NCBI GenBank assembly: GCA_964016885.1
Contig: OZ024759.1
Span: forward strand, 22,320,001 to 22,384,000
DNA from: Eledone cirrhosa
Taxonomy: Eukaryota
Length of the DNA: 64,000 nucleotides
Reading direction: 5' to 3'
Part shown: piece after piece, positions 16,790 through 21,949 of the stretch
Position numbering within the stretch: the stretch's first letter is position 1
Layout: each line of letters begins with the position of its first letter
The notes under the pieces: generated by a model
Database searches by the model: none
The model's input: the letters and a program-made list of their open reading frames with translations, nothing else
Told to the model about the DNA's origin: nothing
Made by a program: the position numbers and the translations under genes

Positions 16790-17632
16790 TTTCTACTGTA
16801 TTTTTCCATAGCTATGAAGATAATATATATTCTATACTTAACTTTCTACTGTATTTTTCTGTAGCTATGAAGATTTTTATATATTCTATACTTAACTTTC
16901 TACTGTATTTTTCTGTAGCTATGAAGATAATATATATATTCTATACTTTACTTTCTACTGTATTTTTCTGTAGCTATGAAGATTTTTATATATTCTATAC
17001 TTTACTTTCTACTGTATTTTTCTGTAGCTATGAAGATTTTTATATATTCTATACTTTACTTTCTACTGTATTTTTCTGTAGCTATGAAGATTTTTATATA
17101 TTCTATACTTTACTTTCTACTGTATTTTTCTGTAGCTATGAAGATTTTTATATATTCTATACTTTACTTTCTACTGTATTTTTCCGTAGCTATGAAGATT
17201 TTTATATATTCTATACTTTACTTTCTACTGTATTTTTCCATAGCTATGAAGATTTTTATATATTCTATACTTTACTTTCTACTGTATTTTTCTGTAGCTA
17301 TGAAGATTTTTATATATTCTATACTTAACTTTCTACTGTATTTTTCTGTAGCTATGAAGATTTTTATATATTCTATACTTTACTTTCTACTGTATTTTTC
17401 TGTAGCTATGAAGATTTTTATATATTCTATACTTTACTTTCTACTGTATTTTTCCGTAGCTATGAAGATTTTTATATATTCTATACTTTACTTTCTACTG
17501 TATTTTTCTGTAGCTATGAAGATTTTTATATATTCTATACTTTACTTTCTACTGTATTTTTCTGTAGCTATGAAGATTTTTATATATTCTATACTTTACT
17601 TTCTACTGTATTTTTCCGTAGCTATGAAGATT
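16790..17632 (+). repeat. 54-bp minisatellite, 16 copies of the exon-17 splice acceptor
   Basis: ctatgaagatttttatatattctatactttactttctactgtatttttctgtag. Confidence 0.97.
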
Positions 17633-17940: not shown

Positions 17941-18162
<222 letters not shown>

Positions 18163-18304
18163 TAATAATTTTGTTTTTCGTTCATTCTATTTTGATAGTC
18201 AAACCCATTTTTTTATCATATTGTCAAACAAAGATACTTCATCATCATCATTTAATGTCCATTTTCCACACTAGCATGGGCTAGACGAATTGTTCTGACT
18301 ACCA

Positions 18305-19090
18305 TTTTGCAGAGTGAACTGGGTGTCTTTGTTCATGGCACCACCGCTACTACTTTACAGAGTGTACTGGGTGTATTTTATCATGGTACCAACACTACTA
18401 CTTTACAGAGTGCACTAGGTGTATTTTTATCATGGCACCAGCACTACTACTTTACAGGGTGTACTGGGTGTATTCTATCATGGCACCACCACTACTACTT
18501 TACAGCATGTACTGGGTGTATTTTATCATGGCACCAGCACTACTACTTTACAGGGTGTACTGGGTGTATTCTATCATGGCACCACCACTACTACTTTACA
18601 GCATGTACTGGGTGTATTTTATCATGGCACCAGCACTACTACTTTACAGGGTGTACTGGGTGTATTCTATCATGGCACCACCACTACTACTTTACAGGGT
18701 GTACTGGGTGTATTCTATCATGGCACCAGCACTACTACTTTACAGGGTGTACTGGGTGTATTCTATCATGGCACCACCACTACTACTTTACAGCATGTAC
18801 TGGGTGTATTTTATCATGGCACCACCACTACTACTTTACAGGGTGTACTGGGTGTATTCTATCATGGCACCACCACTACTACTTTACGGCATGTACTGGG
18901 TGTATTTTATCATGGCACCAGCACTACTACTTTACAGGGTGTACTGGGTGTATTTTATCATGGCACCAGCACTACTACTTAGCAGGGTGTACTGGGAGTA
19001 TTTTATCATGGCACCACCACTACTACTTTGCAGGGTGTACTGGGTGTATTTTATCATGGCACCACCACTACTACTTAGCAGGGTGTACTA
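18305..19090 (-). repeat. 48-bp minisatellite related to the RTE 3' UTR motif, about 16 units
   Basis: catggcaccagcactactactttacagggtgtactgggtgtattctat; follows an RTE tail at about 18240-18290. Confidence 0.95.
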
Positions 19091-19300
19091 CTTGAACAAA
19101 CTACTCAACCATATAAAAATAAAAATTATGGATCTTCTAGAAGCTGCTAAACTAGTTCCTATAATGGGCATCATCAAAAACAAAGTCCTGAAGCTCTTTG
19201 GTCATGTAAAGCATTCACAGAAATGTCTTTTTAAAACATGTAAGAAGTGTCAAGTATTTGTATTATATATATTCTTCAGGTGTGACATGAAATATCAGTA

Positions 19301-19606
19301 GTCACTCCAGATAGAGCCGCTACTTCTCCGAATTGAGAGGTCACACCTCCAATGCTATGGACATGTAGTGAGAATGTCTCAGGAAAGAACCACTGGACAG
19401 ATTTTAAAGTCAAAACCAACAGGCAAGAGACCCAGGGGTGGTAGACCCCAAGCAAAATGGATAACATCCCTGAGCTTGGCTGGTCATGCATGGGGATCCA
19501 GCTGGATCAGTTGGAGACAGTTGCTTCTGACAGGACCTGCTGGAAGGAGTGTTTGAGGAGTCTGCCTCCATGACCCTCTCAGGAAAAGTGGGCAAAGAAG
19601 AAGAAT
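19301..19606 (+). mobile_element. 5'-truncated RTE-like fragment with (AAG)n tail; a related copy lies at about 10010-10200 (-)
   Basis: YGHVVRMSQERTTGQILKSKPTGKRPRG.P..W; flanked by a direct repeat containing cttcaggtgtgacatgaaatatcagta. Confidence 0.75.
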
Positions 19607-19771
19607 ATATTATATCATATATCTCCTTCAGGTGTGACATGAAATATCAGTATTAATATTAGTATTATAAATATTCTTCAAGTGTGACATGAAGTCATCA
19701 GTAATAATATCTTCTTCAGGTGTGTCATGAAATCATCAGTATTAATAGTTATATTATATAATCTCCTTCAG

Positions 19772-19848
19772 GTGTGTCACATCGTCATTTATCAGATCAT
19801 CTCTCCGAACTTGTTGAGAATACCATCAATGATTTAGAACAATCAAAG
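19772..19848 (+). CDS. SNRNP200: SNRNP200 exon 19
   Basis: ttcag|[27 protein letters not shown]|gtaaga. Confidence 0.96.
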
Positions 19849-20019
19849 GTAAGAAATTAAAGAAACAAAACGTTGTTCATAATAGTTCTTATTATATTTG
19901 GTTTGACTACTACTACCACTTGAAACAATGTTTCCTTGGTCTGATTTGATGAGTTCCATCCCACTCAGTAAGTGAATGAGGTTTGGGATCTTGTTGATGG
20001 GTCTCTTAACGTTTGGTTT

Positions 20020-20500
20020 TAGTTCTCAATAATTCTTATTACATTTAGTTTTAGTTCACTCAACTAAATCTGTCCTATTAACAGCCTTTTACTCATAATG
20101 TCTGCTTAAAATGTAGATAAAGTTCTTTGAATCACTAACTTGTAATTGTGTCAACATTCACCTCATATGAGTTGAGTCATCTCTAAACTGCACATCCACA
20201 TGTGCTAGCCAAAAGCTGCCTTAAATCCAGAAAAAGTTTCCTAAAGAGCGTCACACCCCTTGGAACATCAAGCATAAATAGGAAGAAAAACTTAACAACC
20301 TCCCATCAGTAACAACAATGGAGCTAAAGGCAAGTGAAACACAGCCTCTTGAGCAGATACAAACTATGCAGTGGGGAAATGCCTCAACAGACTAAGATCT
20401 GGTGTTGGATGTGCAAAAGTCACTCTTGCAAAATGGGGATATTTAAAAGATGGAGACGTTGTGTGTGATTGAGGCATCGAACCACATACTACGCAGCACC
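20020..20500 (+). mobile_element. Decayed LINE C-terminal fragment (Ingi/Vingi-like, tentative)
   Basis: W.KCLNRLRSGVGCAKVTLAKWGY...CD*GIEPHTTQH. Confidence 0.5.
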
Positions 20501-21050
20501 CCTGCTGGAAAACCCCTTCCTTCTTTAGTCATCTCTAGTGTGTGTTGGACAAATACACAAGGGTTATTATTCACAGTGATTACAGACATTTGATGTTCAC
20601 TCAGGATGTATCTTGTTCTTTTTGTCTGTGTTGACTATGTCACCCATCTAAGCTGTCATTATAAACTAGAGGATTGGCAGTAATTGGTAGAGCGTCAGAC
20701 ACCATGCTTTTCAGCATAGAGTTACGGCCCTTTACGTTCTGAATTCAAATCCTACCATGGTTGGCTTTGCCTTTCATCCTTACAGTGGGGGGTCGATAAA
20801 ATAAAGTACCAGTAATTGCTGGCCTTGTGCCAAAAGTAAAAACAATTATTAGCTAATAAGTCTTTTGTTTACCAGTGTATCAGTGTTGACGATGTCACAC
20901 ACAGGCTGTTTATAGAAGCTAATCTATCTTTAGGTTATCACTCTTCGTGTGTACTCTAGGAATGTAATCCCCGTAAATACTTGAGGACAACTGTATTCTG
21001 TTTGTTAATGTATCAGTGTCAACAATGTCACACACAAGCTGTCACTATAA

Positions 21051-21170
<120 letters not shown>

Positions 21171-21237
21171 TGAAAACTTGTTACTCTAATGAAAGTCATT
21201 ACTTATGACAGCTGGTTTTGCTCCCTAACACCAACCA

Positions 21238-21859
21238 TTTTACAGAGTGTACTGGGTGCATTTTATTGTGACACCAGCACTACCACTTTACAGAGTGTAC
21301 TGGGTGTATTTTGTGACACCAGCACTACTACTTTATCAAGTGTAGTGCAGTATATTTTATTGTGACACCAGTACTACCATTTTACAGAATGTACTGGATG
21401 CATTTTATTGAGAAACTAGCACTACTATTTTACATAGTGTACTGCAGTATATTTTATTGTGACACCTGTACTACCACTTTACAGAGTGTACTGGATGCAT
21501 TTTATTGTGACACCAGTACTATCACTTTACAGAGTTTACTGCAGTGTATTTTATTGTGACACCAATACTACCACTTTACAGAGTGTACTGCAGTGTATTT
21601 TATTGTGACACCAGTACTTCCACTTTACAGAGTGTACTGCAGTGTATTTTATTGTGACACCAGTACTTCCACTTTACAGAGTGTACTGCAGTGTATTATA
21701 TTGTGACACCAGTACTACCACTTTACAGAGTGTACTGCAGTGTATTTTATTGTGACACCAGTACTTCCACTTTACAGAGTGTACTGCAGTGTATTTTATT
21801 GTGACACCAGTACTACCACTTTACAGAGTGTACTGCAGTGTATTATATTGTGACACCAG
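21238..21859 (-). repeat. 49-bp minisatellite related to the RTE 3' UTR motif, about 13 units
   Basis: gtgacaccagtactaccactttacagagtgtactgcagtgtattttatt; preceded by cctaacaccaacc from the RTE UTR. Confidence 0.95.
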
Positions 21860-21949
21860 TGTAATATTTCTGTAATGATATCTGTGTCTTAGTCTGTAGA
21901 ATGTCTGGTAAATTTGCACCATTCTGTGATTTCTCTTCCCTTCTTTCAG

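Follow-up and report, generated by a model that had tools for sequence, protein, structure and literature searches.

SNRNP200/Brr2 is the U5 snRNP helicase, a core component of the spliceosome that is encoded by an essential gene. In a 64,000-nt stretch of the Eledone cirrhosa genome (assembly GCA_964016885.1, contig OZ024759.1, positions 22,320,001 to 22,384,000 of the forward strand; hereafter the window, in whose coordinates all positions are given), intron 18 of this gene carries near-identical acceptors located 52-492 nt 5′ of the true acceptor of exon 19, and the AG-intact copies among them would lead almost at once to a stop codon. This arrangement raises the question of whether the upstream sites regulate a spliceosome component through its own splicing, or whether they are the residue of local duplication that the splicing machinery passes over.

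Repeated copies of the exon 19 boundary

The last 26 exons of SNRNP200/Brr2 lie within the window (exon numbers are counts within it), and their placement and translation yield a single open frame with a lone terminal stop at about 30007. Exon lengths range from 71 to 292 nt. In a PDB search, the exon at 18010-18157 hit human Brr2 with an E value of 6e-37, and the nearest named proteins to a 51-residue piece, among the proteins of 91-2000 residues searched, are molluscan, from Mytilus and Lottia, at 82%. Intron 18 is a phase 1 intron of 1614 nt (18158-19771). The features discussed here are collected in Table 1.

Table 1. Features around intron 18 of SNRNP200/Brr2 in the window; acceptor scores, in bits, come from a matrix built from the gene's own acceptors
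Feature	Position	Strand	Remarks
Acceptor array before exon 17	16790..17632	+	54-bp unit; 15 decoy AGs; true site 17621
SNRNP200/Brr2 exon 18	18010..18157	+	ends AAG; donor after 18157; phase 1
Copy 1 (U1)	19255..19300	+	decoy; AG ends 19279, then GTGTGACA; TGA 19288-19290; 13.3 bits
LINE 3′ fragment, RTE-type	19300..19605	+ (sense)	306 bp; 5′-truncated; frameshifted; (GAA)3 tail 19597-19605
Copy 2 (U2)	19606..19652	+	decoy; AG ends 19631; TGA 19640-19642; 12.0 bits
Copy 3 (U3)	19653..19703	+	AG changed to AA at 19681; branch-point-like TTAAT retained; weak AAG one base further on, 3.4 bits
Copy 4 (U4)	19704..19741	+	short unit, 38 bp from previous copy; AG ends 19719; TGA 19728-19730; 7.2 bits
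Last unit (U5)	19742..19779	+	true acceptor; AG ends 19771; TTAAT with A at -27; 10.4 bits
SNRNP200 exon 19, true	19772..19848	+	77 nt; starts GTGTGT
Decayed acceptor array before exon 20	20622..21096	+	unit about 69 bp (by eye); true site 21077

The 3′ end of intron 18 is built of five units, each comprising about 45 intron bases and 8 exon bases. The last of these, U5, includes the 8-nt exon head that recurs in the copies, and the number of exact exon bases in each copy varies from 5 to 8. All of the positions given in an earlier, sequence-only reading of this DNA proved correct, namely AGs ending at 19279, 19631, 19719 and, for the true site, 19771, together with an AG changed to AA at 19681. 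The same is true of its translations: read on from exon 18, the decoys with an intact AG give Gly-Val-Thr-stop at U1 and U2 and Gly-Val-Ser-stop at U4, and the true exon gives Gly-Val-Ser-His-Arg-His. In U3, use of the AAG one base past the dead site would likewise stop immediately. Successive units are spaced by 352 bp (46 bp without the 306-bp insert), 50, 38 and 52 bp, and the tandem repeat is well above chance, with none of 200 shuffles equalling it. Over 27 bp, from -6 to +21, copies 1 and 2 do not differ, in keeping with the direct repeat of at least 27 bp that had been noted around the insert, and over 43 bp they are 91% alike.

Variants among the units are distributed as a mosaic: upstream of the AG, U1 resembles U3 and U2 resembles U5, and downstream U1 and U2 are the same. 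Because periodic units share variants crosswise in this manner, we infer that they have undergone unequal exchange. The array has also decayed, in that one AG is gone and one unit is shortened, and three of the four copies keep their AG. The suggestion that some of the decoys are old tandem duplicates is thus borne out by units that are periodic, mosaic and decaying. Contigs from two sequencing runs, X1 and X2, which probably represent the source sample and hence check the assembly only, match 19586-19958 without differences; this segment of the array is therefore not an assembly error.

We consider it probable that the array is a neutral mirage of the intron-18/exon-19 boundary, formed by duplication and unequal exchange and later split by a LINE, with decoys that are ignored. 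Such a mirage would have begun with one chance duplication of about 50 bp that ended 8 nt into exon 19, and would have grown, with shuffling of its units, via unequal exchange. A truncated LINE would then have inserted between the first two units, and slow decay would have followed. The spliceosome is predicted to pick the last copy by exon definition, since this copy alone has the genuine exon, with the context of its donor, downstream. Occasional use of a decoy would amount to noise rather than regulation, its products being removed through nonsense-mediated decay or re-spliced.

The original report of mirages concerned Adh3. Lancelet mirages are described as tandem repeats of intron-exon boundaries with units of 10-160 bp, many of which keep AG or GT (PMC3087553), and they are reported to leave splicing unaffected (PMC3087553, PMC3902484). 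As described there, the units join the 3′ end of an intron to the head of an exon, many of them but not all retain AG, and unequal exchange is invoked; the same holds at intron 18, where junction-spanning tandem units of 38-52 bp bear signs of exchange. The lancelet globin gene BflGb6 is described as having an acceptor-side mirage (PMC3087553), like that of intron 18. Compared with the lancelet cases as published, the present array differs in having a non-lancelet host, in being split by a LINE, in its 8-nt exon head and in copies that read AG/GT. Both silence and length polymorphism are described as tested in lancelets, whereas the evidence here consists of a depth fit in one run (X4, below) and the X1/X2 match from one sample.

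A second set of relatives is found in human genes, in which the 37-bp VNTR of F7 intron 7 and the repeats of 6-16, CBS, LMNB2 and PDGF similarly reiterate a splice junction, with pseudo-sites whose sequence is functional but which are reported to be normally silent (PMC1557585). Minisatellites of the F7 type are donor-side and the first copy wins, whereas the intron 18 array is acceptor-side and its last copy is the true site. Some pseudo-sites of 6-16 and CBS are described as used (PMC1557585), so silence is not guaranteed. Among the papers listed in a literature search that covered mainly open-access work, there was no mirage in a cephalopod or other mollusc. A neutral mirage in SNRNP200 would extend the repeat type described in lancelets to another animal group, and arrays of this kind can mislead gene annotation. 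The locus would also constitute a natural test of acceptor choice, with near-identical acceptors in an essential gene and two sister arrays of different properties.

The LINE insert and the origin of the first two copies

The sequence that separates U1 from U2 had been described as a truncated RTE fragment at 19301-19606. The identification as a LINE 3′ fragment holds, and both limits lie one base further upstream (Table 1). Translated, it gives the C-terminus of a LINE frame; a search yielded 304 relatives at E<=0.001, and RVT_1 was present in eight of the nine longer relatives scanned. One of ten relatives looked up is named after F52C9.6, which we take to be the frame of C. elegans RTE-1. 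A Pfam search with the insert piece, a fragment without the RT domain, returned no match, nor did a word-index protein search using the LINE piece. Among sequencing-run contigs, the depth of the insert is about 5e5, compared with 12 for unique DNA, and approximately 1000 other copies per run carry on past 19585 as GAA repeats. A relative that is 78% alike occupies 9991-10198 on the minus strand. Insertions of RTE-clade LINEs are described as the C-terminus of a 5′-truncated RT-ORF followed by a short-repeat tail (PMC6007223, PMC1291365, PMC2887409), and the insert, with its GAA tail, has the same form. The RTE-type assignment is well supported, the clade label being drawn from the tail, the named match and background knowledge of the group.

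The sequence-only reading had further proposed that one decoy might be a long target-site duplication (TSD) of the RTE element. In a fuller version, insertion of the LINE into the first unit of an existing array would have generated U1 and U2 as a 43-46-bp TSD, and later exchange with downstream units would have changed the upstream half of U2. The repeat (19258-19300 and 19610-19652) does abut the 5′ junction at 19300 and starts at most 4 bases past the GAA tail. This geometry is non-discriminating, however, since an insertion anywhere in a tandem array comes to lie between two of its units. A 1-nt deletion and the 27 identical bases are common to U1 and U2, which favors a common origin of the two, but they are closest relatives over -6 to +21 only. 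They differ at -20, -16, -9 and -7; at all four positions U1 has the base of U3, and at -9 and -7 U2 has that of the true site. The best alignment of the left flank of the insert is to the U3 region.

The length of the repeat also bears on this proposal. The TSDs of RTE elements are reported to be mostly 7-15 bp (PMC6007223), those of SR3 to be 10-12 bp (PMC1291365), and that of a moth RTE element to be 20 bp in one example (PMC2887409). The 43-46 bp found here, in a repeat that is mosaic, exceed these lengths, and no long RTE TSD was among the papers listed in a literature search of mainly open-access work. We applied a flank-repeat comparison to ten other insertions, with limits set by eye: seven have no flanking repeat above shuffles, one is borderline (1/200), and two have significant repeats of 30-39 bp. 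Although these two provide some precedent for long duplications, both appear to have a third copy, as in an array. The seven include the related copy at 9991-10198, which has no long flanking repeat (90 of 200 shuffles equal its score), and one insertion with a perfect 10-bp repeat. Long TSDs as a habit of this LINE family were therefore rejected, given seven null insertions of ten and two significant ones that look like arrays.

Taken together, the agreement of U1 with U3 at four of four sites and the shorter TSDs of RTE elements disfavor the TSD origin, which we regard as unlikely. Reading of the junction sequence revealed no short TSD at the insert, which is a point in favor of a long one; conversely, an array that came first requires an insertion with nearly no TSD, and this counts against the neutral mirage. 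The TSD proposal concerns the origin of the first two copies alone, and is compatible with silent decoys.

Strength and use of the decoy acceptors

U1 and U2 have higher local scores than the true acceptor and are the best and second-best of the 88 AGs of intron 18, and U4 has a lower score. Exons begun at U4 or U2 would be 129 or 217 nt long, inside the range of the gene. Thus, neither local score nor exon length explains silence of the decoys, which counts against the neutral reading. At branch distance, the motif YTRAY is confined to the true site and the AG-dead U3, and TTAAT is lacking from all three AG-intact decoys, a hint that this branch-point-like sequence perhaps helps choice of the true site. 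The argument is a weak one, for YTRAY occurs in only 9 of 25 true acceptors, against a background of 21%. Loss of a branch point as a general reason for silence was rejected, as the true site of exon 17 has no YTRAY and three of the exon-17 decoys have one.

Evidence on use comes from contigs of runs X1, X2, X4 and X5 aligned to 19095-21230 at >=80% likeness, a range that begins downstream of the exon 18 donor, so that joints from 18157 to a decoy lie outside it. These are four of eight runs, the others being X3 and three RAD-seq runs among them. At 80% likeness, copies of the repeats swamped the tables of the four, with 846 joints and 3715 loose ends beyond the rows listed. Contigs of X4, an unlabelled run, span all four bins in which exons 19 and 20 fall. 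The best fit of a single depth, 31.7x, places cover at 19770-19846 and 21076-21165, with the start searched over 19743-19779 and other fits close. Since AG stands at the 3′ end of exon 18 as well as of exon 19, the limits of this fit are those expected if the mRNA uses the true acceptors; the exon joint itself is absent from the rows listed. X4 depth is zero at 19671-19742, which lies on the path of decoy messages unless another donor is used. No listed joint crosses this gap, and contigs drop rare forms, so it is not counted as evidence of silence. The X4 depths fit use of the true site and are no measure of decoy use.

In a second organism, X5, contigs at >=80% likeness cover 19671 to about 19831, with a depth over U3-U4/U5 that is 2.3 times that of the next bin. 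Most of exon 20 and of the unique intron is without X5 cover, which may be due to a tool filter. The cover at elevated depth suggests that the array exists in this organism, and hence that it may predate one species.

As exon 19 starts GTGTGT, all three AG-intact decoys are of the form AG/GT, and joining any of them to exon 18 regenerates a donor, with scores of 7.1, 7.1 and 9.8 bits compared with a median of 8.2 bits for the 25 donors of the gene. A stop is consequently not the sole possible outcome of decoy use, and a transcript mis-spliced to a decoy might be re-spliced rather than poisoned. The joint between exon 18 and true exon 19 (18155-18157 with 19772-19777) reads AAG/GTGTGT and also scores 9.8 bits, the strongest of five GT-regenerating joints in the window; by its sequence, exon 19 could be an RS-exon.

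These regenerated donors permit a reading in which the decoys are recursive, or ratchet, sites: exon 18 would be spliced to a decoy, and the resulting AAG/GTGTGA or AAG/GTGTGT donor would then be spliced to 19772 to give normal mRNA. In a further part of the same reading, the choice between rescue and poison would fall to the exon junction complex. Recursive sites and RS-exons are described as an acceptor with part of a donor directly behind it, the rest being supplied on splicing to the previous exon, as here, and the exon junction complex is described as repressing such splicing (PMC6224609, PMC8605326). Against this resemblance, the GT is present at the decoys only because exon 19 itself opens with GTGTGT, and three of the four copies carry T to A at +6, a weaker donor. 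The true joint is also as strong as the best decoy joint and must normally escape re-splicing. Ratchet points are described for long introns, and intron 18 is just 1.6 kb; furthermore, the sites at intron 18 stem from the copying of a GT-starting exon. Finally, no GT accompanies the arrays at exons 17 and 20, which have persisted nonetheless. The ratchet and its exon junction complex extension, taken jointly, are accordingly rated as quite improbable.

Decoy stops and neighbouring arrays

The TGA is the same in all four copies, and in each it directly follows the copied exon head, as the first triplet that does not belong to the exon. Most simply, the four TGAs would represent one junction event that was copied with the unit rather than four events. 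Stops are moreover the usual fate of cryptic acceptors in this gene: when all 732 CAG/TAG sites of the 25 introns are counted, the decoys among them, 724 run into a stop, with figures of 43% for a stop inside ten codons, 20% inside four and 4.4% at precisely the fourth. The claim that the decoys are poison acceptors is thus right in that each would yield a stop if used, and it is uninformative in that nearly all other cryptic sites would do the same. Use of two of the three decoys would also put the sequence that follows out of frame. The decoy stops (beginning at 19288, 19640 and 19728) are at least 118 nt before the exon 19 donor, more than the roughly 50 nt upstream of a junction expected of stops that trigger nonsense-mediated decay.

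A comparison is provided by two neighbouring acceptors. In the array before exon 17, the units are about 97% alike, and each of the five decoys closest to the exon keeps the frame without meeting a stop, so that its use would add 18 residues. A TTAAC variant in three exon-17 units creates both a stop and a branch-point-like motif. The decayed array before exon 20 has an AG-intact copy at 20875 and AG-less copies near 20622 and 21008; a SINE-like piece of very high copy number and a lower-copy repeat lie between its copies. Because the exon-17 array arose by the same process and yielded stop-free decoys, poison is not a rule of such arrays. Together with the copying of one junction triplet and the default occurrence of stops in the gene, this indicates that the decoy stops of intron 18 need no selection.

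Within 600 bp, near copies occur at 3 of 25 acceptors (those of exons 17, 19 and 20) and at 0 of 25 donors (P 0.23), so that three of four consecutive acceptors have arrays. Local duplication is widespread in these introns, near copies within the same distance being found at 879 of 4811 sampled intron positions. When weighted by position, the acceptor arrays show no excess (P of at least three, 0.76-0.86). Measured against a per-event background of 3.1-3.4%, P is 0.04-0.05 for 25 acceptors and 0.20-0.25 for 50 junctions. As the window was picked for this feature, we do not claim an excess of arrays at acceptors.

Splicing factors often regulate themselves through poison splicing, and the host gene here encodes a core spliceosome helicase. 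The decoys could accordingly be imagined as selected poison acceptors that tune Brr2, such that a weak spliceosome or high Brr2 would shift splicing to a decoy whose TGA would direct the message to nonsense-mediated decay. The strong decoy scores, stops that lie far upstream of later junctions, the slight per-event excess of acceptor arrays and the X5 contigs over part of the array are all in keeping with this idea. It is opposed by the probable single origin of the TGA, by stops being the default outcome, by the mosaic and decaying state of the intron 18 array, by the stop-free decoys of its sister at exon 17 and by the disappearance of the excess among the 25 acceptors under position weighting. 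No such case appeared in the titles and abstract openings of the 20 papers listed out of 104 on SNRNP200 and poison exons. We judge selection for poison to be very unlikely. Also very unlikely is co-option of the mirage as a Brr2 feedback switch, in which a transcript spliced to a decoy would be either re-spliced or locked by the exon junction complex and destroyed via its TGA, although, if true, decoys regulated by re-splicing or degradation would mean that a random repeat had come to control a gene of the spliceosome core by feedback.

Other repeats in the window were recorded. In intron 19, away from splice sites, an imperfect 30-bp direct repeat (19875-19904 and 20022-20051) flanks a high-copy fragment and has an apparent third copy, which fits either an array plus an insertion or a long TSD. 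Intronic minisatellites with units of 47-54 bp occupy 6435-6817, 9354-9637, 16790-17632, 18298-19089, 19607-19747 and 21234-21860, and the templates of these six are in part unrelated despite their common unit size. Intron 2 contains a full-length LINE in sense orientation (1437-4559), with an unbroken frame of 1040 codons that encodes, by Pfam, an endonuclease, a reverse transcriptase and a PHD finger; a flank repeat test of this element found no clear TSD. Downstream of the gene, at about 39000-40980 on the minus strand, broken frames, including one of 238 codons at 40264-40980, give the impression of a transposase from their sequence. Tracts of (TA)n and (TG/TA)n that are very long, 2 kb and 6 kb, and have extreme GC skew occur at 50265-52422 and 57340-63640.
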